Shown here piece by piece: positions 1 to 47,606 of a stretch of DNA of 50,923 nucleotides. This DNA is from a virus (Duplodnaviria > Caudoviricetes), in IMG/VR virus record IMGVR_UViG_3300023181_000011, positions 1-50,923 of that record, one strand, 5' to 3'. Within the stretch, counting starts at the first letter, position 1. Every line of letters starts with the position of its first letter. The notes beneath the pieces were generated by a model. That model was not told the DNA's origin and did not search any database. It saw only the letters and a list, made by a program, of their open reading frames with translations. Made by a program: the position numbers and the translations under genes.

Positions 1-127
1 ACAAAACGCTTGATCTTCCTCGATCATTAGGATTTCAAACGTTGCCTGCTTTTCACTGCCGTGGGTGTTGTTGTAGTACTTATCACCAACTTGAGGCTGT
101 TGCAACTTCTTGATCTCGGCCTTTGCG
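1..127. repeat. Terminal 127-bp direct repeat (copy 1); most likely k-mer assembly overlap of a circularly permuted contig
   Basis: 1-127 is identical to 50797-50923, lies inside a coding region, and the ORF reads in frame across the join. Confidence 0.95.
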
Positions 128-1450: not shown

Positions 1451-1534
1451 TGGTGAGAGCACGGGGGATCGAACCCCGAAGGACTAGCCAGCAGATTTTA
1501 AGTCTGCCGCGTTTACCAGTTTCGCCATGCTCTC
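1451..1534 (-). tRNA. tRNA-Leu(UAA) with encoded CCA
   Basis: Acceptor GAGAGCA/TGCTCTC-A-CCA, D loop TGGTAA, anticodon arm GCAGA-CTTAAAA-TCTGC, long variable arm, T arm CGGGG-TTCGATC-CCCCG. Confidence 0.95.
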
Positions 1535-2126: not shown

Positions 2127-2279
2127 AGTCACTTCTCCTGAAAAGAGGGGCGTAAGGCGGGCCATGATAGATCGCCTAATAAAAAATGATCAGCCTTTTT
2201 AAGCCATGCTGAGGGCTAGGTGTGAGGTCCGGTTACCTTTCTCACTCAAGGCACCCTTATGTGCCTACGTGCGCCAGTC

Positions 2280-2921
2280 CTAGGCGGCGCGTCGTGCCTT
2301 CGCTTCGTCGCTGTTCAGGCCCAGTTCACGAGCCCGCCTTGCAGCGAACGCATTGATCTCAGTGGCCAGCACACGAAGTGCCGTCTCGTCGTCGTTCAGG
2401 TCGCCATTCTCGACGGCCTTGTCGATGGCCTTGGTGAACGAGCCGACACGGGCCAGAATGGTGGCCACGTCGAACGGATTGTTCTTCTCGCGGCGGTTCT
2501 TCTCCGACGCCAGTTCATAGAACGGTTCGGCGGTCGCAGCTTCGACGTTGTATTCGGTGTACGTCTTGGCCGTCGTCGGAAGCTGGCCCATGACACCGTC
2601 ACCGTTGACACGGATCGGGCTAAACTTGGCGGCCCATTCGAGCAGCGCAAGGCGGCGCGACTGAACGCCCTTGCCGAACACGACGCCGCCAGCCGTCTTG
2701 CAGTTGCCGACGAGTTGAGCGAACAAGGTGTAGTCGCCGAACGTGGCGGCGTGCGTCAGGCACTCGACGGCGATATTGTGGACCGTGATGTCGAATGAGC
2801 CGTCAGCGGTAATGAGGCTGACGATGTCTTTGACGAGGTCATCGCGGGTACGTTCCACGACAGGCACGACAACGAGGGCCGTCGATTCGCCGACAGCCGG
2901 TTTGTTTTTCTTGGAAGCCAT
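2280..2921 (-). CDS. Conserved early podophage protein of unknown function (213 aa)
   Basis: Strong GC3 codon bias; HA..fGD.T...L....R..ALxxW...F pattern seen in early genes of T7-like phages; ATG at 2921. Confidence 0.85.
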   Translation of the reverse strand: MASKKNKPAVGESTALVVVPVVERTRDDLVKDIVSLITADGSFDITVHNIAVECLTHAATFGDYTLFAQLVGNCKTAGGVVFGKGVQSRRLALLEWAAKFSPIRVNGDGVMGQLPTTAKTYTEYNVEAATAEPFYELASEKNRREKNNPFDVATILARVGSFTKAIDKAVENGDLNDDETALRVLATEINAFAARRARELGLNSDEAKARRAA

Positions 2922-2945
2922 TGTGTGATCTCTTTCACATAAGAT

Positions 2946-2970
2946 AGAAAAGCCTGACGGAAGTGTCAGG
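2946..2970 (-). terminator. Terminator-like hairpin just before the RBS of 2280..2921
   Basis: CCTGAC-ACTTCC-GTCAGG followed by CTTTTCT on -. Confidence 0.45.
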
Positions 2971-2989
2971 GTTGAGACCACAAAGGCGA

Positions 2990-3407
2990 ATGAATGGCTG
3001 CTATTGTCCGTTTGATGGGGCGTAAGGCAGGTGATGATAGATCGCCCTTATGGGCTCAACACTGACACTTGTGACACCGGCCTAACGCCAGCATGTCACT
3101 TGTCAGTGTCCCCTAGGTTAATGACACACACGTCAACCGTCACAACGGCATCACTAGGGGTTTGCGTTTGTGGCGGAGCGTCAGGCATCCACAAGGCACA
3201 GTGCTAGTGTGCGCTAGTGGTGACGGTTAAGCCAATCCCCTTTGGCAAGGGGGCGACTGCAACGAAGGGCCAAGCCCGTTCCGCTTCCCATGGTGGACGC
3301 CACACTTGGCTTTGTCCGGGGTTACGTACTTGAGCCGCTTAGGGCCTTCGCCAGTCTGACGTCGGGGAAGGGTTCAAGAACGCCCTTGCTTGCCGCCGTC
3401 GAGATTG
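2990..3407 (-). ncRNA. Candidate structured non-coding RNA or leader (unassigned)
   Basis: No credible ORF; many hairpins plus two long-range pseudoknot pairings (see findings). Confidence 0.55.
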
Positions 3408-3443
3408 AAAGCGCAAAAGGGGGCGCATTGGTTGCACCCCCTT
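3408..3443 (-). terminator. Intrinsic terminator after 3454..3867, possibly bidirectional
   Basis: AAGGGGGTGCA-ACCAA-TGCGCCCCCTT then TTGCGCTTT on -; a T run also follows on +. Confidence 0.65.
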
Positions 3444-3453
3444 CGCATCTTTT

Positions 3454-3867
3454 TTATTTATCGTTTAGATTCAGCGTCTTCCAACGCCCTTTTCCCTTCC
3501 GTTTCTTCACCGTCTCATGGGTCATGGCGTCAGTCCGATCACCGTCTAGGGCGAAGCGCTTAGAGGCTGACCCAGTGACACGATGATAGATCGAAGGGGC
3601 CAGCTTGCCCCCATCGCCCTCCATGCGTCCCACAAGGCCCTTTGGAGAGCCGTAACCGCGAGGCCCTTGGAAGCCGACGCCGTAGCTTCCCCCTTTGAGC
3701 CGTTCCCGACTGCACCCGCCACGATTGGAGACGGGACCGAAAGGAACAGGCTTGTCGCTTGACTGCACCGACTTGAGGTTAGCCAAGACGATTGCGTTAG
3801 TCCGTTGTTGGACTGCCTTGCCAATGCGCTTGTGCAGCTTAGTCCGTTGTCTGGATGACTGAGCCAT
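3454..3867 (-). CDS. Very basic (K/R/G-rich) early protein, 137 aa
   Basis: TAATG coupling puts the start at MAQSSRQRTKLHK rather than at 3948. Confidence 0.7.
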   Translation of the reverse strand: MAQSSRQRTKLHKRIGKAVQQRTNAIVLANLKSVQSSDKPVPFGPVSNRGGCSRERLKGGSYGVGFQGPRGYGSPKGLVGRMEGDGGKLAPSIYHRVTGSASKRFALDGDRTDAMTHETVKKRKGKGRWKTLNLNDK

Positions 3868-4559: not shown

Positions 4560-5250
4560 CAATGCGATGCTTGACTGTTGATGTCAGGCTTACCTTACAC
4601 ACCTGTTGCGTGTAGGTGTTACAATGTAGCATATGTGAATGGAATGAATGGGTTGGTTGTGCCCATGGTGTACAGTGTGCGTGTTTGACTACTCCAACGC
4701 CTCTGGCTGTACTGACATTACTATGGCCATGAACATGAGCCCACAGTGTATCCAACCCCGCCTATAGTTGACATTACTTGTAACACCACCATGATTACTT
4801 GAAAGTACTTGGGGGCACCCGGGGGGCTCGGGGGGTTCCTTGTTGTGCATATCACACCCCCACATTTTCTCAGAGAAATTCCCCCGATGTTTCCAACCCA
4901 ATGTAAAGCATACCTGACATCTGTGCCCACTTTGGGCCATACCATAACTAATTTAGACCCCTATGTACGATTTTACTTGACATCTACTTTAGAATATGTT
5001 ATAATATAGTTGTTATCAAGTCACCTACAATAAGAGCAACAGTAAACTGATAACAATTAACACTGTTAACCTGTTAGTTGATCAATTATCTTTTGTCTAT
5101 TAATTATCAGTCTTCTTACTGAAACAGTTTGCTTAGTAAGACCTGCAAGTGTAAGACACCAAGTGTAATCTCTTTAAGGGAAGTTCCCCTCTTTTTTGTC
5201 TCCCAGCTTTAACCGGCTTCGGTGATGGACCCAATTTTAAAAAGAAGGGA
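4560..5250. other. Non-coding divergence zone between the two arms; probable location of the physical genome termini
   Basis: Arms diverge here, no credible ORF, G-run cluster at 4811-4835, AT-rich 4970-5135. Confidence 0.55.
4977..5005 (+). promoter_or_regulatory. Consensus sigma70 promoter driving the structural arm
   Basis: TTGACA-17 nt-TATAAT with TGn extended -10. Confidence 0.9.
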
Positions 5251-13206: not shown

Positions 13207-13761
13207 ATGGCTTGGACTAACGCTGACGGCCTGCAAGTTCGCTTCGGCTCCGATTGGAGCTCTAATGGACTTCGCCGGAACCGTCCCGGAACCCTTTCGA
13301 CTATGGGTGCTGAAAAGCAAATCGAAGTCGACGTCGTCTTTAAGACGCTAGCATCCGGTGTTACCGGCTACTCGGCGGACCTTAACAACGACGGCACGAA
13401 CGATGGTTTCTATAACGGCGACGTTAAGATTCCGGCTAACTCGAAGATCACTGCTGTCCAGTACGTTGCGGGTGAAACCGCAGTGGGTGGTACCGCCTTC
13501 ACTGTTGGTCTGTACCAACTGAACGGCACCGCCATTAACGCTACCGGCCTGATCACTGCCACGGAAGGTGTTGTTGCCAACATGACCGTCGGTAAGATTA
13601 TCACCGGCGCTGGTACTCTGGCTTCGACGACTTCGGGTTCGACTTCGGTCGGTGCTACGGATGCTTACATCGGCATCACGCCTACCGGTACCTTTACCGC
13701 TGGTCGTGGTCGTCTGATCATCCGCTACATCGATCCGACTCCGCTGCCTAACATCACGTAA
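13207..13761 (+). CDS. Virion structural or capsid decoration protein
   Basis: MAWTNADGL start, G/T-rich beta protein, co-transcribed with the MCP. Confidence 0.75.
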   Translation: MAWTNADGLQVRFGSDWSSNGLRRNRPGTLSTMGAEKQIEVDVVFKTLASGVTGYSADLNNDGTNDGFYNGDVKIPANSKITAVQYVAGETAVGGTAFTVGLYQLNGTAINATGLITATEGVVANMTVGKIITGAGTLASTTSGSTSVGATDAYIGITPTGTFTAGRGRLIIRYIDPTPLPNIT

Positions 13762-16318: not shown

Positions 16319-18480
16319 CTAATAAACTATACAGGACTGCCGTTCGCGGACTGATCACTGAAGCGTCTGAACTGACGTTCCCTGAGAACAGCACGCTGGA
16401 CGAAGACAACTGCATTATTTACCGTAAGGGTAATCGGTCTCGCCGCCTCGGTTTTAACATCGAGGAAAATGGCGCTGTGTCCGACTACATCATTGCGGAC
16501 CTTGCCAGCACGGCCATGAAGGAATACGTCTGGTCTTCGGTCAACAACATTGCTGAAACGAACTTCCTGTGCAAGCAGATCGGCAGTACTCTTTATTTCT
16601 ACGACCTCGCCAAGACTCCACTGTCTGATGGCCGTAAGCCCTTTACCGTCAACCTAAACCTTTACCTCGCCCCCACTCAGACCACGATGTATCAGTCTGA
16701 AGTGCAGATGGCTGCGGGTAAGGGTTATCTGTTTGTTGTCGGTGAACGCATTGAACCCCTGATCGTCACGTACGATGCCTCGACTAATACGATCAGCGTC
16801 CAGAAGATTTACATTCAGATTCGAGACTTCCGGGGGGTTGACGATGGCTTAGCCAATGACGCAGAGCCGACGACCCTTTCGGATACTCACCATTACAACC
16901 TCCGGAACCAAGGTTGGGTTAACCCCAAGAACACTGGCTCCGGCAACGTCGTTCAGTACTTCGATACTTTCGGCAACATCGGGTCTTACAATGCACCCGA
17001 CAGCTCGGTCATCAATGAGTACAAGACAGCGACAAGCCGTTACCCCGGGAACAACAAGCAATGGTGGACGTCACGAGACGCAACCACTAATGCCTTCAGC
17101 CCAGCCCTCCTTGAGAGCTTCTACAGCGGCAACAACCGAGCCCCCCGTGGCCACTTCATCGTCAACGCCTTTAACATTGACCGAAGTGCTGTAAGCGGCA
17201 TCCCGAACCTTAACGTCGAAGCAACCGCCGAGCGTCCCGTTTCTGTAGCATTCTTCAGTGGCCGGGTCTGGTTCCTGTCTGCTTCGTCTGTTTACTTTAG
17301 CCAAGTGCTCGACACCAAGAACAAGGCGGGCTTCTGCTATCAAGAAGCTGACCCAACGTCAGAAGACATCAGCGAACTGGTTCCAACTGACGGCGGTGTG
17401 ATCCCGATCCCTGAAATGTCCAAGGGCGTCCGCCTGATCCCGTTGGGTTCTGGTATAGTTGTCTTTGGCATCAATGGCATCTGGTCCATCACAGGGACGT
17501 CTGCTGGCTTTACGGCTAACGATATCTCAGTGTCGAAGGTTAACCCCATCGGCTGTGAAGCACCTAACAGTGTCGTCGAAGCTGAAGGTCAAGTGTACTG
17601 GTGGTCCCGCGTGGGTATCCTCGCGATGTCCCCCAAGATGGGTCAGTTCGGTCCAGTCGAAGGTATCTTTGACAAGACGAACATTACGGAACAAACCATC
17701 CAGACCTTCTACAGCGAAGGTATCCCGGAGAACCGTAAGCCGTTTGTCAAGGGTGCGTACGATCCAGCAACCAACAGTATCCAGTGGTTGTTCAGTGACG
17801 ATCCAACTGTACCCAACTACATGTACAACAGGGTCCTCAACCTCGACCTGACGCTTCAAGCCTTTTACCCTTGGTCTCTCAGCAAGGTTGGTTCTAAGAT
17901 CAGTGGCATCTTCGTCACCCCCAAGATCAACCTGATTGACCATCCGGCGATCAAGGACAGCTTCTTCAAGTACTGCTTCGTCACACCAATCGGTGGTGAC
18001 GCCTTTGGTCGCTTCGAAGACAGTTCGTTCTCAGACTTCAGATACGAAGACGAAGTCGGTAAGCCTTACTTGTCGTTTGCCAATACCGGTTACGAATTGC
18101 TTGAAGACGCTATGCGTGGGAAGATGACGCCTTATGTGTTCACTTACTTTAGGCGGACCGAAGAGAACTACGTCGAAGACGGGACTGACTACAAAGTCGA
18201 CAAACCATCCTCCTGCTATGTTCAGGTCAGATGGAACTGGGCGAATAGTTCAGTTGCCGGTAAATGGTCCGCTAAGGTCCAAGGCTATCGACATACCCGC
18301 ATCCCTCAGTTCACTGACGACGCCTTAGGGTTCGACACAGGTTATCCCATCGTTGTCACTAAACACAAGTTCCGCGGGACAGGTAAAGCTGTTCAGTTCA
18401 GGTTCGAGTGTGACGAGATCGGTAAAGACTTCGACCTGCTTGGGTGGGCCGTCAACTACAACGGAGCAACTCAGGTCTAA
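16303..18480 (+). CDS. Tail tubular protein B / nozzle (T7 gp12-like)
   Basis: 725 aa beta-propeller-like; GLITEAS.L.FPEN start; gene position. Confidence 0.88.
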   Translation: MARAVANKLYRTAVRGLITEASELTFPENSTLDEDNCIIYRKGNRSRRLGFNIEENGAVSDYIIADLASTAMKEYVWSSVNNIAETNFLCKQIGSTLYFYDLAKTPLSDGRKPFTVNLNLYLAPTQTTMYQSEVQMAAGKGYLFVVGERIEPLIVTYDASTNTISVQKIYIQIRDFRGVDDGLANDAEPTTLSDTHHYNLRNQGWVNPKNTGSGNVVQYFDTFGNIGSYNAPDSSVINEYKTATSRYPGNNKQWWTSRDATTNAFSPALLESFYSGNNRAPRGHFIVNAFNIDRSAVSGIPNLNVEATAERPVSVAFFSGRVWFLSASSVYFSQVLDTKNKAGFCYQEADPTSEDISELVPTDGGVIPIPEMSKGVRLIPLGSGIVVFGINGIWSITGTSAGFTANDISVSKVNPIGCEAPNSVVEAEGQVYWWSRVGILAMSPKMGQFGPVEGIFDKTNITEQTIQTFYSEGIPENRKPFVKGAYDPATNSIQWLFSDDPTVPNYMYNRVLNLDLTLQAFYPWSLSKVGSKISGIFVTPKINLIDHPAIKDSFFKYCFVTPIGGDAFGRFEDSSFSDFRYEDEVGKPYLSFANTGYELLEDAMRGKMTPYVFTYFRRTEENYVEDGTDYKVDKPSSCYVQVRWNWANSSVAGKWSAKVQGYRHTRIPQFTDDALGFDTGYPIVVTKHKFRGTGKAVQFRFECDEIGKDFDLLGWAVNYNGATQV

Positions 18481-34362: not shown

Positions 34363-35222
34363 TAGAATGTTACCTCGTATTGATCTTTGGGTTCTTTGTT
34401 AACTTCGGTGAAGTGTACAGGCCCCTTAGCATAGAGGAACGTTCGGAGACCAATACCCCCATTTGAGTCTTTCCAGCAGTCGAACTTGAATGGACAGTAC
34501 GAACAGTTGACACCAAGGACTCTGTTACCAGACTTACCCATTTCCTCGTCTGAATAGCAACGAGGGGGCGGTGTTTCACTGTCTACAACTGCTTTAAGGT
34601 GTGCAATACGCCCGGGAATGTCGAGCGCAACGAGGTCTTCACGGGGCGCCTTAAGCAGAGCCAAGTGACCTTGTTCTTTTTCGACTGCGAGCCAAGCACC
34701 ATCAATGTCCCCCAAGGCGTTCGAATAACCCGCAAGCTGCTCATAGTAGCCGAAGGCATCGTTGTCTTGAAGAGTGCCGTCCTTAAACTTACGGAAAGCG
34801 TACTTGGATGCAGTCTTAACGTCAACAACGACCCCGTCAATAACGGCATCCATATGACCAACCACTCCATCCGTGACCACTTCTTCTTGTTCATGGGTTA
34901 CCTCGTGCCCAGCCTCTTTGGCCAGAAACAACATGATAGATTCCCATACGTCACCGAACAGGAACTTCATTTTGGTGTGTGCCGGAAGGACTTCCTTGGG
35001 GTGGTCCGATTTAACTTCGTACCAGACCTGTCGGTCTCCCTTACCAATCCCGGACATCCGGAGGGTACCCTTGACGCCCCTGCGGTCCTCAGCGAGCCTG
35101 TTGGCTACTGTGACTGCAATGGCACGTCCTAGGGCCTCCACGGCCTCCGGGTTGGACATATGACTGTCCTCCCCGAAGAGCGCTTCGATGTCTGGGATCA
35201 GTGTGTCAATGGTCTTAGAGAT
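34362..35222 (-). CDS. PD-(D/E)xK (Cas4-like) exonuclease; start either ATC at 35222 or ATG at 35159
   Basis: LRMS.IG, GH.DA..DG..VDVKTAS, Y..QL..Y, C.YC..K..CW. Confidence 0.88.
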   Translation of the reverse strand: MSKTIDTLIPDIEALFGEDSHMSNPEAVEALGRAIAVTVANRLAEDRRGVKGTLRMSGIGKGDRQVWYEVKSDHPKEVLPAHTKMKFLFGDVWESIMLFLAKEAGHEVTHEQEEVVTDGVVGHMDAVIDGVVVDVKTASKYAFRKFKDGTLQDNDAFGYYEQLAGYSNALGDIDGAWLAVEKEQGHLALLKAPREDLVALDIPGRIAHLKAVVDSETPPPRCYSDEEMGKSGNRVLGVNCSYCPFKFDCWKDSNGGIGLRTFLYAKGPVHFTEVNKEPKDQYEVTF

Positions 35223-42345: not shown

Positions 42346-42434
42346 CCGAAGCGGTACATTAAGAACTTAATAATAGACCCGACGATGTCTGCGAAGCCCC
42401 AACCCGCAAGGAAGTAAATGATAAAGTCGATCAA
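42342..42434 (-). CDS. 30-aa membrane peptide (MIDFIIYFLAGWGFADIVGSIIKFLMYRFG)
   Basis: AGGAG RBS, TTG start, 4-nt overlaps at both ends. Confidence 0.65.
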   Translation of the reverse strand: MIDFIIYFLAGWGFADIVGSIIKFLMYRFG

Positions 42435-43183
42435 CGAAACGCTCCTGCGTAATTTGTGACTGTGGTACCAACAAGGCCGGGGGCACTATTGATTTCAAGG
42501 ACGTATGATAGACGATCCGGGTGTGCACGCGTTGGCTTTGACACCATCACATCCACCGCACCAAAGTCCAGCCCAACGGCTTCCATTGCCGCGACAGCTT
42601 GGCGAACAGTGTCTTCGGACGGCTGCCCCGAATTACGTGCGTAGATAAATCCACCGGAATGATTGCGTACTGCCCAGTTAGGTTCTCCTGTAAAATCAGG
42701 GTCCCGTATCTTTCGAGTAGAGTCGATGACTTGGCCCTTGACAACGTGAATCCTCCACTCACTTTCTTTCACAATGTACTTAGTATAGCACGGACTGGCC
42801 GGAATGTCAACCCTCGGCTCGACGATTTCGATGCCTTCGCCGCTGTGCCCATTCAGTGTGTGACGACAAACGACCTTAGTACCCCAGCCTCGGGCCACGG
42901 CTGCGTCGGTGGTGAAGTCAACACAGCGAGCCCGATTACCAACATGATTAAAAAACGCCAGTTTATTGGCGGCAACACGGACGCGATCAGGCGGATTGAG
43001 AACCATGCCAGCGCCAGCCACATGATCAGGAAGAGCGCCAGCGTGTCCCCAATTGATAAGGGTGTCGGCTCGTCCGAGTCGTACCTTCGATCCAACGTGT
43101 TTAACCCTTCGGATGCCCAGAGCCTCAGCAAGCGCCTTAGCGCCCTGAGACCCCGGGTTATGTGAATAGATGTAAGTAGCCAT
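42431..43183 (-). CDS. ATP-grasp ligase (RimK/YheCD-like, phiEco32 type)
   Basis: INWG, NKL, GhSG.GI, E.R.HV, GLDFGAVD, LEINSAPGL. Confidence 0.9.
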   Translation of the reverse strand: MATYIYSHNPGSQGAKALAEALGIRRVKHVGSKVRLGRADTLINWGHAGALPDHVAGAGMVLNPPDRVRVAANKLAFFNHVGNRARCVDFTTDAAVARGWGTKVVCRHTLNGHSGEGIEIVEPRVDIPASPCYTKYIVKESEWRIHVVKGQVIDSTRKIRDPDFTGEPNWAVRNHSGGFIYARNSGQPSEDTVRQAVAAMEAVGLDFGAVDVMVSKPTRAHPDRLSYVLEINSAPGLVGTTVTNYAGAFR

Positions 43184-43185
43184 AG

Positions 43186-44472
43186 TTAAAACTCTTCTGG
43201 ATGGTTAGCCCGGCGACGGGCAAGACGAGCGCGGGCCTCAGCAGCTAGTTGCTCATGACGACGAGCATTAGGCGCAGGTTGTGGGGCAGGGGGGAAGGGT
43301 TGTGGCGCCGGCATGTTCCAACGAGCCGGTGCAGCGATGTTAATCATTTCACCGTTACGGCGAACGCCAGCTTCTTGCAAGGGGTGCATGAACTGAGCCC
43401 AGTTGACTTGGTCCATAGCCGGGTTTGGCACTGCACGTTCAACTAGACGGTTTGCGTTAATAATGGCATCAATGTCAACACCTCGTGGGTCCCACTCCTC
43501 GTCAACAATCACTTGGGCTTCACGCCCAGTCAGCTTTTTTTCTTTGACAACCTTAGGTGCAGGCCAGTCAGAGCGGGCAAAGGCGACGTGTTGTGCAAGC
43601 CGCATGCCTTCCCACATCTGACGGTCAAAGCCTTTGCTGAACTCAACGAACGACGGGGCCAGTTCACCGAAGACGTCAGCTGTGAACGACTCCAAACCCA
43701 TCGAACTGAACGCCTGAACGACAGCGGACGGCGACTTGTAGCGGACAGCAGCCAGCTTGAGGCTGTGGATGACGTTGACCCAAGCCGTGATCTCGGCCTT
43801 GTCCATCGTGCCGCGGTGAGACCTGAACTCGACGGTTCCCTTAGACGGCAGGGACGCCCAGTTGAACGAGGCGTAACGGCGATCATTCGACACAAGGTTT
43901 TGCATCGAGTGAGCCCAGTTAGCCCGTCCGCCGCCAAGCCGCTGCTCTTGTTCAGCAACAGGGACGTTGTAGCAGGCATTGCGGGCAGCGTCGATCACAG
44001 CACCGGCATGAGACACCGGAAGACAGTGAACGTTGCCGCACCGCTCTTCGCCGCCAAAGGCGATCATTGGGGCTTCGAAGATCGTGTAAAGCGTGAACAG
44101 AGTGAAGATGTTGGTGAATGATAGACCGAAAGCGTTCATGTGAACGTGAACAGACGTCCGATAGCTGAAGACCGGCGTGAACTCTTTCTTGGTCAGATAG
44201 GCTTGGAGAGCATCCAGATCATCAGAAAGGCTACTATAGGGACGCCCACCACGACTGATAAACTCAATGCCATCACGAAGCGATCCATCTGCGACAGCTT
44301 GCCAAGGAAGGCTGTTCGGCGGCCTGAAGCCTTCGTGATCAGGCCCCAGCCCTTCCATTTCGATCTCAATACCATACGAGTCAGGATCGACTGGACCACT
44401 GACCCCGGTACCCTTGAAATAGTAGTCTCCGACGGACGTTGCCAGAAACTCTTGTTGTTGTTTGTCAACCAC
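43186..44472 (-). CDS. Putative amidoligase (glutamine synthetase/COOH-NH2 ligase fold); probable GTG start at 44472
   Basis: GIEIE, DGSLR.G.EF, RTSVHVH, RY...N, GTVEFR. Confidence 0.88.
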   Translation of the reverse strand: MVDKQQQEFLATSVGDYYFKGTGVSGPVDPDSYGIEIEMEGLGPDHEGFRPPNSLPWQAVADGSLRDGIEFISRGGRPYSSLSDDLDALQAYLTKKEFTPVFSYRTSVHVHMNAFGLSFTNIFTLFTLYTIFEAPMIAFGGEERCGNVHCLPVSHAGAVIDAARNACYNVPVAEQEQRLGGGRANWAHSMQNLVSNDRRYASFNWASLPSKGTVEFRSHRGTMDKAEITAWVNVIHSLKLAAVRYKSPSAVVQAFSSMGLESFTADVFGELAPSFVEFSKGFDRQMWEGMRLAQHVAFARSDWPAPKVVKEKKLTGREAQVIVDEEWDPRGVDIDAIINANRLVERAVPNPAMDQVNWAQFMHPLQEAGVRRNGEMINIAAPARWNMPAPQPFPPAPQPAPNARRHEQLAAEARARLARRRANHPEEF

Positions 44473-44476
44473 GGTG

Positions 44477-45130
44477 TTACGCCGCCTCGCAGATAAAAGG
44501 GATACCCTCTTCAGCAAGCACCTCCTTGAGGTATAGGTACTCGTCGTCGAGAGTGAAGTTTTCGAAGTTTTTGCCAATCGCCAAGCCCACAGGGGTCCCG
44601 CGATAGAACAGTTTGAACAGAGACTTGATCTTCATGTCACGGCCAACAGCGAACTGACTGCTGACACCAACCGAAATCCAGCCCTTGTTGTGAATCATAT
44701 CGAACGCTTCCTTGGGCGTCGGATACTTTTGCAACAACATGTCTTCAAGGGCTTGACCGTTCAGCGCTTGATTGCTGACGCGGTTACCGCTTGCTGAAAA
44801 CAGAGCACGGGTTTGAAGACCCTGAATCTGTTGACGAGCAGTGTTACGGACCATGAAGTCGGCCGTCAGACGGTACGGGTCGTTGATGTACCCGACGTGG
44901 AAGATGCGGAAGTTCAGCGCCGGGTCACCGATGGGGATCGACAACTTCTTGGCGTCAGTAATCTCATGACCTGTGTCACCGATCAGTGGGTACACAGACA
45001 CGTCAACCAGCATCGGCTTGGTCTTCGTGGCTTCACGCACCTCGCGCACAAGCACAGCCTTGTCTTCGAACGTCAGGATGGACCCACGTAGCCGCATCCG
45101 GGCCTGTTCAAGGGTGTCATAGACCAGCAT
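44477..45130 (-). CDS. Conserved hypothetical protein of the amidoligase cluster
   Basis: GY.N, R...RQ..QGL, YP, L.Y+G..VG pattern. Confidence 0.8.
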   Translation of the reverse strand: MLVYDTLEQARMRLRGSILTFEDKAVLVREVREATKTKPMLVDVSVYPLIGDTGHEITDAKKLSIPIGDPALNFRIFHVGYINDPYRLTADFMVRNTARQQIQGLQTRALFSASGNRVSNQALNGQALEDMLLQKYPTPKEAFDMIHNKGWISVGVSSQFAVGRDMKIKSLFKLFYRGTPVGLAIGKNFENFTLDDEYLYLKEVLAEEGIPFICEAA

Positions 45131-45325
45131 TATTCTAAATAATCTCCATGTTGATCGCGTTCTTGCAATGTAAATTCTCTGACGTCTCTAAGATCAATCT
45201 CGTCTTCAAGATGACAAAAAGCATTCCAAACACTGTCAAATCTTTTACAGCGTGAAGAACCTTTTTTATAAAAGACTGTCAGAAAATAGTAAGGTTTAAG
45301 CGGCCTGCTGGAACGGGATGGCAAG
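45130..45325 (-). CDS. Small AT-rich hypothetical protein (...KPYYFLTVF...); start uncertain
   Basis: Open frame fills the gap and is TAATG-coupled to the next gene; nearest canonical start is a TTG. Confidence 0.45.
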
Positions 45326-46123
45326 GTCAGTCTCAAAGTCGAACTTGTCGAACCAACGAACGTCATTGGTGTCGATGATCTGCTTGGCCGTGTCGCCGAA
45401 GATGTCAGCCGGAACGATGCCCTTGAAGTAGTCATTGGCACCCTTCATGGCCGCATCGAAGACCCATGCCTGAAGCTCAGGGTTGGCCAGCCATGCCGTC
45501 GAAGGCGTCCGATACTCCATGCCGTAAGGCTTGGCCCGGAAGGCACCAGCACCACCGTACATCGAACGACGACGGTTGTCGGGGTCCCAGATCAGGCTGT
45601 AGATGCCGATGTAGTAGTCCATCTGGACCGCCATGGCCCGGCACAGGTTGAAGTGTTCCTTGTCACCGTACGGGTTCTTGACGTCAGCACCCCAGCCGAT
45701 GTGGATGTGACCAGCAGCGGTCCGGAACGTTTGGAGACCGTTGGGGCGCGGGTTGGCCTCACCGGTGTACGCATTGTAGTCCGGGTCACAGCCCAGTTCG
45801 AGCGACTCACCCGGCTGCATGCCGAGGTACTCAGGGTCGAACTCCATGAACGGGACGCCGTGGGCAATCTCGAAGATGGGCGGCAGTTGGTCAACCAGAT
45901 CGTCCATGACGGACTTGATGTTGGCCATGAACTCGGTACGGGTCCGGCTCGGGTTGATGTTGATCTCGGCAGCCAAGCCGTCGACTTGAATGGCACCGCC
46001 GCTGACAGCGAACGGATTCTTCTTGTCGCCCGGGATCAGGCCGTGACAGGAGACGGGGGACCCAGTGATAGATTCCCGCAGGAACATTTCAGGGTCGGCA
46101 CCGATGGTAATGATGGGTTGCAT
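45296..46123 (-). CDS. phiEco32-like COOH-NH2 ligase type 2
   Basis: IGADPE.F, DG.A.E.N, GCDPD.NAY, R.A.GHIH.G, RR..YG.AG.FR.K.YG.EYR. Confidence 0.92.
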   Translation of the reverse strand: MQPIITIGADPEMFLRESITGSPVSCHGLIPGDKKNPFAVSGGAIQVDGLAAEININPSRTRTEFMANIKSVMDDLVDQLPPIFEIAHGVPFMEFDPEYLGMQPGESLELGCDPDYNAYTGEANPRPNGLQTFRTAAGHIHIGWGADVKNPYGDKEHFNLCRAMAVQMDYYIGIYSLIWDPDNRRRSMYGGAGAFRAKPYGMEYRTPSTAWLANPELQAWVFDAAMKGANDYFKGIVPADIFGDTAKQIIDTNDVRWFDKFDFETDLAIPFQQAA

Positions 46124-46127
46124 TCGC

Positions 46128-47606
46128 TTATGCTTTCGCTTGTTGTTGAAGGTTTGGATCGTTCAGGCACTCAGCACACACAAAGACTTTCTTTGTGTCC
46201 TTAGACGACAGGAGCCTGAACTCACCCTTGTCGTCACCAGTAATGTTACACTCGCCCCAGCCGCACTTGTGGCCAGTCAGTTGCCTGAACTTGGCCTTTG
46301 TGATCTTCTTTCCGTCAGGGCCTTCACGAGTGTCGAAAAGAGACGAGCGCTTAGACTCAGCTACTTGCTTTTTTTTAAAGTCGCCGACAAGGATGACATT
46401 GTTAGCAGCCACCTTGGCCCGGAGTTCAGCGTCGGTGTCACCGAGCAGGAACGGAAGCTCGCTGTCGATCTTGTTGGTAACTTCAGCGGGTGCGTTGTCG
46501 TCTTCAGTCTTCGACCCCTTACCCATCTTTCCGTATTCCCAGCCCTCTTGGTACTGAGACCACTTCGGATAGTCTACTTGGTAGTGGAAGGGGTTGTTGT
46601 AAGTCTGACCCTTTGCGGCGTTCTCCCCGTCAGAAAAGCCCAGAGCCCAGACATCCCACTTGACGTCTTCGAACTCGGCACTTCGCATGTCGTGGATGTC
46701 GGAGGGCTGGTATCCTTGGTGGTCTCCATCACGCAGGCTGGTTGCGGCTGCGCTTGAGGCTGGACTTGAGTTGTTTCCGCCATTGGCGGTTTGTGATGCC
46801 CTTTGGTCTCGTTGGTTGACCCAGTCTTCCCAAGTTGCTCGGCCGTTGTACGGGGGACGGTGAGGCTGGTGTACGGGAAAATTTTGGACACTTTTACCCT
46901 TGACTTCGAGTCGTTGGGGCTTCTCTTGGAAGACGTGCTTGCTGTCCGGGATTTCCCAAGTGAACAGTGTGTCGACAGGAAGTTCGTAAATCTTCTTGTT
47001 GAAGTCAACACCGTTGCGGTCAAGAATCCAACGCAGCATGCCCGGCTCGGATGCCCAGTAAAGGGTATCACAGTCGGCGGCCATGGCGTAGAACAGTGGC
47101 CGTTCCTTGTTACGCACGATGCTGATCGTGTTTTCTTCGTGGTCGTACACGGTCAGAGCCCATGCACCTGCCGCGAGGGCCACAGCGTCCTTGACAGACG
47201 ACAGCTCGTGGATGCTGTTGGCAAGCTGTTCACTGTCAGTGTCGCCTTCAGTGTTCTTGGCCATGTCCCGCAGACAGCCGTAGTCCAAGGTGCCGTTGTG
47301 GGCCACCATGTACCGGCCAGTCCAGAACGGGTGAGCGTTGACGACATTGACCTTGCCGCGAGTTGCGGCGCGGTTGTGGCCCATCAAGACCTTGGCCCCC
47401 GTAACCAGAAGCGCATCGCAACGCTTCATTTGCATGAGGTTTTCAGGACTGATGGGGGACTTCAGCAGACGGACTTCCTTGCCGTGTGTGATAGACCCGA
47501 TGCCTGTGCTGTCCACGCCGCGAAGGTAGTCAGCGTGAAGAAGTTGTTTGAAGACGTTAACGTCACGGGCAATCAGATTACCGGCAACTCCTACTAGACC
47601 GCAGAT
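46128..47606 (-). CDS. Class II (Ntn) glutamine amidotransferase with C-terminal extension; ATC start
   Basis: (M)CGLVG...RG.DSTG, GH.RAAT.G, NAHPF, HNGT, TDSE; AGGAG 8 nt before ATC-TGC-GGT. Confidence 0.9.
   Translation of the reverse strand: MCGLVGVAGNLIARDVNVFKQLLHADYLRGVDSTGIGSITHGKEVRLLKSPISPENLMQMKRCDALLVTGAKVLMGHNRAATRGKVNVVNAHPFWTGRYMVAHNGTLDYGCLRDMAKNTEGDTDSEQLANSIHELSSVKDAVALAAGAWALTVYDHEENTISIVRNKERPLFYAMAADCDTLYWASEPGMLRWILDRNGVDFNKKIYELPVDTLFTWEIPDSKHVFQEKPQRLEVKGKSVQNFPVHQPHRPPYNGRATWEDWVNQRDQRASQTANGGNNSSPASSAAATSLRDGDHQGYQPSDIHDMRSAEFEDVKWDVWALGFSDGENAAKGQTYNNPFHYQVDYPKWSQYQEGWEYGKMGKGSKTEDDNAPAEVTNKIDSELPFLLGDTDAELRAKVAANNVILVGDFKKKQVAESKRSSLFDTREGPDGKKITKAKFRQLTGHKCGWGECNITGDDKGEFRLLSSKDTKKVFVCAECLNDPNLQQQAKA

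Follow-up and report, generated by a model that had tools for sequence, protein, structure and literature searches.

The attenuators of the Bacillus pyr operon and others of the PyrR type act through three hairpins, an anti-antiterminator, an antiterminator and a terminator, and depend on a protein. In phages P4 (CI RNA, with its seqA, seqB and seqC) and P1 (c4 RNA), short complementary repeats in the leader decide premature termination, and the P4 system works through a stable, processed RNA that targets this leader in trans. The boxB hairpin of phage lambda has a GNRA-like pentaloop, and the early mRNA of T7 is processed at intergenic hairpins. Here we describe a locus that shares features with each of these systems. 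It lies in a complete 50.9-kb virus record with terminal repeats (IMG/VR record IMGVR_UViG_3300023181_000011; the whole stretch of 50,923 nucleotides is called the window below) and occupies a gap of 532 nt (3453..2922; coordinates are those of the window, and features are on the minus strand unless stated otherwise) between the gene of a small, very basic protein, whose stop codon is at 3454, and the next ATG at 2921, which opens the gene (2280..2921) of a 213-aa protein matching phrog_1448. The 3' domain of this gap, about 3125..2940, folds into a conserved structure of ~190 nt. We consider it most likely a cis-acting leader that works as a termination and/or translation switch at the boundary between early and middle genes, and put the probability of this reading at roughly 0.5. 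The leader belongs to no described family, and its mechanism would be of a known kind.

The same order of basic protein, terminator hairpin, gap and phrog_1448 gene was found in two complete genomes, L003 and L004 (50.4 and 50.8 kb), which together with the window form the comparison set; protein searches of public data (Logan, ENA and JGI) identified about 20 further contigs with homologues of the phrog_1448 or the basic protein. The flanking protein is 49-57% identical among the three phages, and the gaps of L003 and L004 are 621 and 598 nt long. A six-frame comparison of the three gaps gave similarity in every frame and only over one conserved nucleotide block, so that the gap is non-coding, as had been recognized in the first-pass annotation of the window, which described positions 2990-3443 as a gene-free stretch. 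The three-phage alignments contain two conserved sequence islands, around which the sequence is almost wholly different and the pairing is the same. Strain variants were taken from contigs of four other leaf-litter metagenome runs over 2880-3480 (X2-X5): X4 is identical, X2 and X3 differ by a few per cent, and X5 has no coverage. X2 and X3 are single Logan contigs with a depth of 3.6-4.6, in which any one change could be an error.

When folding energies were compared with those of shuffled sequences, the 3' domain gave z-scores of -6.51 in the window, -4.02 in L003 and -7.75 in L004, and the antisense strand gave -3.79, -2.72 and -4.49, respectively, so that the sense strand was the stronger in all three phages. 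The RNAalifold consensus of the 3' domain, computed from a MAFFT alignment, had an energy of -43.3 kcal/mol and recovered two of the helices described below, H1 and H2, with 19 of its 56 pairs changed on both sides. In this structure, 85.9% of the alignment cells were paired, against 38.5-48.1% in slid controls, and none of 500 shuffles reached this value; compared with column shuffles, the consensus had a z-score of -8.15, and none of 200 was as good.

The first of the helices, H1 (3059..3109), is a long hairpin in which 3109..3101 pairs with 3067..3059 and an upper stem is formed by 3099..3094 and 3076..3071. It was found both as an inverted repeat and in the folds, its stem covaries in L003 and L004, and the X2 contig, which does not cover the 3' arm of H2, carries two compensatory changes within it (3098:3072, U-A to A-U; 3108:3060, C-G to U-A). 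The tip of H1 is a 16-mer, GCUGGCGUUAGGCCGG (3077..3092), which forms a 5-bp stem with a GUUAG loop and is identical in the window and L003; L004 has a variant with a different, 8-nt loop. The 12-nt core of the 16-mer occurs in one exact copy in the window.

The second helix, H2, was identified as an inverted repeat, by duplex energy and by RNAalifold. Its 5' arm (3042..3070) shares its outer end, 3067..3059, with H1, and its 3' arm (2961..2989) shares its outer end, 2970..2961, with the terminator-like hairpin T2. The arms enclose a conserved loop of ~50 nt (2990..3041) that opens with GAUCUAUCAUC and continues with ACCUGCCUUACGCCCC and a small inner hairpin; GAUCUAUCAUC corresponds to 3043..3033, so its first two bases close H2. 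The block GAUCUAUCAUC-N-CCUGCYUUACRYCCC (3043..3017) is the second conserved island, and the longest invariant block in the three-phage alignments belongs to this loop. H2 is 23-27 bp long in all three phages, with 27 of 29 positions paired in the window, and over register positions 0-22 the three phages pair 21, 21 and 22 of 23 positions. Two or three pair types were observed at 18 of these 23 positions, with seven G-U pairs and not a single A-C mismatch, which favors the minus-strand RNA as the folded molecule. This strongest helix of the region is absent from the first-pass annotation because its 3' arm, 2989..2961, lies outside the range considered there.

The third element, T2 (2941..2970), consists of the hairpin CCUGAC/GUCAGG (2970..2953) followed by a U-rich tail, CUUUUCUAUCUU, and was flagged as terminator-like in the window and in L003. 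It is located about 20 nt ahead of an AGAGA site and the ATG of the phrog_1448 gene (together 2919..2933). The AGAGA (2933..2929) is invariant in the three phages and is the probable Shine-Dalgarno element of that gene, whose ATG is at 2921..2919. In folds that contain T2, GAGAUCAC (2932..2925) can pair with GUGGUCUC (2981..2974).

These three helices are built from four segments, seg1 (3109..3101), seg2 (3067..3059), seg3 (2970..2961) and seg4 (2958..2953). The base of H1 is seg1:seg2, the outer part of H2 is seg2:seg3 and T2 is seg3:seg4; because the strands are shared, H1, H2 and T2 are mutually exclusive. The overlap between the 3' arm of H2 (2989..2961) and the 5' arm of T2 (2970..2965) is also present in L003 and L004. 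Each phage repeats a core of its own, 5-7 nt long, through seg1 to seg4: CUGAC/GUCAG (window), GACAAC/GUUGUC (L003) or CUAGC/GCUAG (L004). Any of the pairings 1:2, 2:3 and 3:4 can therefore form. Duplex energies in the window, L003 and L004 were -30.4, -28.7 and -29.2 for 1:2 and -42.6, -30.1 and -48.6 for 2:3, with shuffle means between -13 and -24; for the window, shuffling gave -13.2 ± 3.4 for H1 and -17.4 ± 3.4 for H2. The alternative pairings are thus conserved, and the sense strand is the folded one. We folded each leader under constraint in two states, A, with seg2:seg3 paired, and B, with seg1:seg2 and seg3:seg4 paired, and obtained energies (in kcal/mol) of -77.3 (A) and -68.8 (B) for the window, -72.8 and -79.9 for L003, and -92.1 and -79.5 for L004, placing the two states 7-13 kcal/mol apart. 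In the nascent RNA, before seg3 exists, the complete H1 was the minimum free energy (MFE) structure in all three phages. The state-B folds also pair the flanks of T2 with the AGAGA region.

These pairings suggest how the leader might act at the junction between a short early operon, which would end with the basic-protein gene and its own terminator-like hairpin (T1), and the genes that start with phrog_1448. H1 would form first during synthesis, and whether or not seg3 then displaces seg1 would decide passage into the downstream genes. In state B, seg1:seg2 would complete H1 and seg3:seg4 would form T2, the flanks of which would mask the AGAGA ribosome-binding site; in state A, seg2 would be taken up by seg3 as the outer part of H2, T2 would be blocked and the ribosome-binding site would be free. 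H1 would thereby serve as anti-antiterminator, H2 as antiterminator and T2 as terminator. What passes or is stopped could be RNA polymerase, ribosomes or both, and we infer that the output of the switch is control of termination and/or translation, set by a factor that recognizes either the 16-mer at the tip of H1 or the conserved loop of H2.

Set beside the described systems, the locus has the general layout of an attenuator, in that antiterminator and terminator share a strand and the anti-antiterminator shares seg2 and forms first. Its anatomy is closest to that of the PyrR type: three mutually exclusive hairpins in a leader just ahead of the regulated gene, a first hairpin whose conserved apical sequence is suited to factor binding, and an antiterminator that is the most stable helix. 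It differs from that type in having no sequence or Rfam relation to it, in its position at the early/middle boundary of a phage, in the much greater length of H2 (23-27 bp), which encloses a conserved loop of ~50 nt, and in that termination is here predicted from sequence. With P4 CI and P1 c4 RNA it shares the short, repeated complementary segments within one leader transcript, whereas there is no sign of processing here and no sequence relation.

The resemblance to lambda N and its nut sites lies in a small, very basic early protein, predicted to be mostly disordered beyond a basic helix at its N terminus and encoded beside a terminator, and in a nearby RNA hairpin, the 16-mer, whose 5-bp stem carries a loop of 5 nt. 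The GUUAG loop of the window and L003 and the 8-nt loop of L004 are nevertheless unlike the GNRA-like loop of boxB, the protein has no sequence similarity to N, and the hairpin is situated downstream of T1, so that it could act only on T2 and later terminators. The basic protein is encoded at 3454..3867 (137 aa, pI 11.06), directly upstream of the gap as first annotated, and its gene adjoins the leader in the window, L003 and L004 alike. We found 13 homologues, itself included, all without names or domains; their alignment has the conserved core RLKGGSYGVGFQGPRGF, and searches of Pfam, PHROG, PDB and GenBank phages gave no match. An AlphaFold2 model (mean pLDDT 64.1) shows a confident N-terminal basic helix at residues 5-35, and the remainder is of low confidence or disordered and too weak for a fold search. 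The modeled fold is compatible with a nucleic-acid-binding peptide of the lambda N kind, and the protein is possibly the effector of the leader switch.

Several observations weigh against reading the domain as a switch. The MFE structure was state A in the window and L004 and state B in L003, so that the default state varies among the phages. No recognizable RNA-binding domain was found in the basic protein, the candidate effector, by Pfam, PDB or the model. In L004, the hairpin of T2 is kept, but its U tract is weak (UUCUAGAG) and it was not flagged as a terminator. No sigma-70-like promoter was flagged in the spacer upstream of the 3' domain, and an efficient T1 would leave transcripts that enter the leader without an evident source. 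The covariation is drawn from three genomes and two low-depth strain contigs, and the structure behind the pair counts was taken from the same alignment as the counts themselves. The five runs with the sequence on record are all DNA, and termination at T2 is a prediction only. Finally, the conserved loop contains a -10-like TATCAT, which in L003 was flagged as promoter-like (TTGTTA-17-TATCAT), and H2, with 21-22 of 23 pairs in each phage, offers the approximately two turns of near-continuous double-stranded RNA expected of an RNase III substrate; these last two features speak for alternative explanations.

The alternative that survives best, although we regard it as unlikely, is that host RNase III cuts H2, separating the upstream from the downstream messages and releasing or stabilizing fragments, with the alternative pairings incidental or a matter of tuning. 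A helix of 23-27 bp, as found in all three phages, is of the length class of RNase III substrates, and, like the processing sites of T7, H2 is a long double-stranded stretch between genes on the early transcript of a podovirus. The genomic company of the leader fits as well: 18 phage records contain distant homologues of the phrog_1448 protein. Most of these are T7-like podoviruses, with Ralstonia, Pseudomonas and Caulobacter among their hosts, and 11 of them have the match at a distance of 1.4-2.6 kb from the beginning of the record. T7-type sites, however, are shorter hairpins with an internal loop, and H2 closes a large conserved loop and takes part in a four-segment exchange. Cleavage of H2 would not account for the recurrence of the seg3 core in seg1 and of the seg2 core in seg4 in all three phages, nor for the conservation of the ~50-nt loop and the 16-mer tip.

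The second alternative concerns the loop of H2, whose opening motif belongs to a family of repeats. The sequence ATCTATCAT[G/C] has 29 copies in the three genomes (9, 11 and 9), every one of them on the transcribed strand. Those of the window are at 143, 1053, 2173, 3043, 3592, 4056 and 4498 (minus strand) and also at 34941 and 49465; those of the relatives were recorded in genomes G002 and G003 (L060-L065). The 11-mer has seven matches in the window at no more than one mismatch, against 0.5 expected. An in-register ATG follows 13 of the 29 copies, frequently with a GG/GGAG resembling a Shine-Dalgarno sequence before it; no such ATG follows the remaining 16, among them the copy within the H2 loop. 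An extended form that includes CCUUACG is present twice per genome and brackets the phrog_1448 gene: its second copy in the window (GAUCUAUCAUG GCCCGCCUUACGCCCC, 2147..2173) stands directly after that gene, and each of the three phages has such a second copy (ATCTATCAT[C/G]NNCYGYCTTACG-like; G002 24217, G003 12246). We also considered, and rejected, translation of a leader peptide from the AUC within the motif: the window has a frame that continues into the gene, but the frames of L003 and L004 are closed by stop codons after 22 and 30 codons, respectively, and the substitutions are not mainly synonymous.

Comparable repeats, the start-associated sequences (SAS) of cluster K mycobacteriophages, have the 13-bp consensus 5'-GGGATAGGAGCCC and are placed a few bases upstream of start codons (PMC3203893). 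Our motif behaves alike: it is a short, asymmetric repeat in one orientation, it is conserved across diverged relatives, and 13 of its 29 copies stand where unrelated genes start. It departs from SAS in a sequence unlike 5'-GGGATAGGAGCCC, in the 16 of 29 copies without an ATG and in belonging to phages of another host group, which places it outside that class.

On the basis of this motif, the locus could be read as a separate small RNA gene, in which the H2-loop motif GATCTATCATC, with TATCAT as -10, would be the promoter and T2 the terminator of a product of ~80 nt with the conserved 5' end CCUUACGCCCC, while transcripts from upstream would form H2 and read through. In addition to the promoter-like flag in L003, TCAACA-16-TATCAT was flagged at the 4056 copy in the window, the second extended copy stands directly after a terminator-like hairpin behind the phrog_1448 gene, and the sequence 3' of the motif is conserved. 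We hold this to be less probable still than processing by RNase III: there is no conserved -35 element at the site, where the bases instead covary as an arm of H2; the 13 of 29 copies that abut an in-register ATG fit a role at translation starts better; and the conserved 5' end has no antisense target in the phage, where only the two copies themselves match.

The first-pass annotation had proposed a single structured non-coding RNA of ~400 nt at 2990-3443, a ribozyme, decoy or ribonucleoprotein scaffold with two long-range pseudoknots. All of its listed helices and both long-range complements are indeed present on the minus strand, the gaps are of roughly conserved length, and the stretch as a whole folds better than shuffled sequences (z = -3.31, with none of 100 shuffles as good; -2.81 for the opposite strand). 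As in that annotation, no known RNA family was matched: in a search of Rfam 15, which covers tmRNA, RNase P, group I and II introns, hammerhead, pistol, large phage RNAs and all other families, none reached its gathering score in the region. Five sub-threshold matches were listed at E <= 10 (E 0.053-6.6; 13.7-22.7 bits against cut-offs of 40-95), and the only match at gathering score in the window was a tRNA.

The excess stability is nevertheless confined to the 3' domain. The 5' part, a variable spacer of ~290 nt (3126..3412) that holds most of the originally listed helices, had a z-score of -1.87 in the window, and its counterparts +0.72 (L003) and -2.41 (L004). The RNAalifold consensus of this part (-24.8 kcal/mol) did not stand out from column shuffles (z = -0.22), 75 of 200 of which did as well, although the 5' part aligns poorly across the phages and a diverged structure could be missed. 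Slid and shuffled-partner controls had seemed to support the 5' structure; this support was rejected as a selection artefact, because the structure had been derived from that same alignment, and it disappeared under the column-shuffle null.

The pseudoknots fared no better. Two perfect 9-nt inverted repeats were observed against a mean of 0.57, and since 67 of 500 shuffles reached two, the 9/9 complement GUGACGGUU:AACCGUCAC is not unusual; 6-mer inverted repeats numbered 48 against 31, a count attained by 11 of 500 shuffles. In X2 and X3, positions 3135 and 3136 are changed and 3227 and 3228 are not, breaking two of the nine pairs of this complement, and X2 is further altered at 3184-3186, within or adjoining the CUGACG loop that belongs to the first pseudoknot, so that both proposed pseudoknots are hit by uncompensated strain changes. 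As a separate observation, differences between the near-identical strains are dense at 3119-3150 and 3184-3188, with ~14 changes and two insertions in ~32 nt, and a single position differs across 3190-3385; the dense patch may reflect recombination or a loop that evolves fast.

The first hairpin of the proposed RNA is better explained as a terminator. T1 (3413..3443) is an 11-bp, G+C-rich hairpin (3443..3417) followed by UUUU, seen in the sequence and in the MFE folds, and it starts 10 nt past the stop codon of the basic-protein gene, of which it is the probable intrinsic terminator. A terminator scan did not flag T1 in the window; its equivalent behind the gene was flagged as terminator-like in L003, and that in L004 on the opposite strand only. 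With its first hairpin a probable terminator and the strongest helix partly outside its range, the single ~400-nt RNA is very improbable, and nothing points to a ribozyme, the conserved part having the anatomy of a cis-regulatory leader. What stands of the original proposal is an undescribed, conserved and structured sense-strand RNA beside a conserved basic protein, ~190 nt long and extending at its 3' end past 2990; most of the apparent large, knotted RNA is ordinary G+C-rich spacer not distinguishable from chance. A DNA-level element, such as a replication origin or an operator cluster of inverted repeats, is likewise highly improbable: the antisense 3' domain also beats shuffles (z = -2.7 to -4.5) and the repeated cores are short, palindrome-like words, but the strand asymmetry of H2 (seven G-U, no A-C), the stronger sense z-score in all three phages, a region that is not A+T-rich and the confinement of the associated motif to the transcribed strand (29 of 29 copies) all argue for RNA.

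The leader as a whole has a narrow known distribution. A blastn search with the gap gave no match among GenBank phages, and a protein-pattern scan with the single protein gave no further homologous locus. With an alignment-based protein pattern, two loci were found in IMG/VR, and the alignment of the basic protein returned the same two; the alignment-based protein pattern found none in genome_contigs. Of four metagenome loci found by the alignment pattern, one is the L003 contig, and the other three, fragments with 29-32% identity, were excluded. The exact conserved H2-loop pattern occurs in IMG/VR only in the two relatives, and a relaxed pattern gave 26 stretches, 23 of them unrelated. One of the remaining three, the IMG/VR contig L028, starts (20-40, plus strand) with ATCTATCATAGACCGCCTTACGCGGGCGGGG, which resembles the second motif copy of the window, and it may be a more distant relative.

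The 16-mer at the tip of H1 has a different distribution. The exact sequence (GCTGGCGTTAGGCCGG) was found in 23 IMG/VR stretches, one of them the L003 contig. Two matches look like chance (in L050 the copy is within a tail-fibre-like open reading frame (ORF), and L052 has the same flanks), and three are unexplained single matches (L042, L044 and L045). The other 17 are from high-G+C contigs, several of which match or closely resemble sequences of Streptomyces phage YDN12 and its relatives in cluster BG, where they form the leaders upstream of the major capsid and major tail genes. In YDN12 (L036/L059), the motif is located at 13643-13654 and 16841-16852, in the leaders of these genes; further occurrences were recorded in L066-L068 and in L037-L041, L043, L046-L049, L051 and L053-L056. 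At these loci it is again set within alternative hairpins that overlap one another. The capsid-leader motif of YDN12 and three named relatives, GCUGCUGGCG[U/G]UAGGCCG[G/A]G, is about 30 nt before the start codon and is flanked on its 5' side by a hairpin whose loop has a CTATCAT or other TANNNT box and on its 3' side by a hairpin over the ribosome-binding site. In contig L048, the 16-mer is arranged in divergent pairs.

A control pattern with 16 specified bases gave a similar number of unrelated matches, so that the count alone proves nothing; it is the clustering of the 16-mer in several paralogous leaders that stands out, and this lead is unexplained. The window phage and the actinophage loci bearing the 16-mer have no proteins in common at E <= 1e-3, and Rfam found no family in five of these loci. 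In the literature, supplementary files aside, neither the DNA nor the RNA form of the 12-nt core was found, and the cluster BG genome note uses none of the words 'motif', 'repeat', 'promoter', 'intergenic' and 'conserved'. In the window phage, neither the 16-mer nor the conserved loop has an antisense target besides the copies themselves. Pairing of the 16-mer region with 16S rRNA (of E. coli) was considered and rejected, as 18 of 300 shuffles for the window and 19 of 300 for the YDN12 version were as good. A speculative idea, to which we give little credence, is that the recurrence is no coincidence and the leader a sensor-type switch whose sensing hairpin very different phages have in common. 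The 16-mer hairpin would then be a portable module, of RNA or DNA, through which a phage senses something conserved in its hosts (RNA polymerase, the ribosome or an RNase, for example).

The window phage and its relatives are a group of uncultivated podoviruses of ~50 kb with a T7-like early region. The large terminase of the window is ~64% identical to those of SIO1- and Lentibacter-type roseophages, and the minus-strand genes form a leftward run from about 4500. Ten large minus-strand ORFs were scanned, including a DNA polymerase, a primase/helicase, a ribonucleotide reductase and an amidoligase/amidotransferase cluster, and no phage RNA polymerase was found among them, large plus-strand ORFs being outside the scan. 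The phrog_1448 profile had no match in the PDB (best E 0.57). Elsewhere in the window, the early and middle genes include one for a tRNA-Leu (anticodon TAA; 1451-1534, minus strand). A perfect sigma-70 consensus promoter (TTGACA-17-TATAAT with TG; 4977-5005, plus strand) lies where the leftward early genes and the rightward structural genes diverge, a region richer in A+T. At 42431-47516 (minus strand), genes named by PHROGs as amidoligase, COOH-NH2 ligase, glutamine amidotransferase-like and 'ribosomal protein S6 glutaminyl transferase'-like form a cluster that may be a modification module.

For a phage of this kind, with no RNA polymerase among the scanned minus-strand ORFs, the question is how it moves from its early to its later genes, and the leader is a concrete, testable candidate for the timing device. 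Phage leader RNAs that control termination are few, and the leader, if it does act in this way, would represent a new family of them. Should the 16-mer prove to be a portable module as well, the same element would gate the passage from early to middle genes in one group of phages and the most highly expressed late genes in another.

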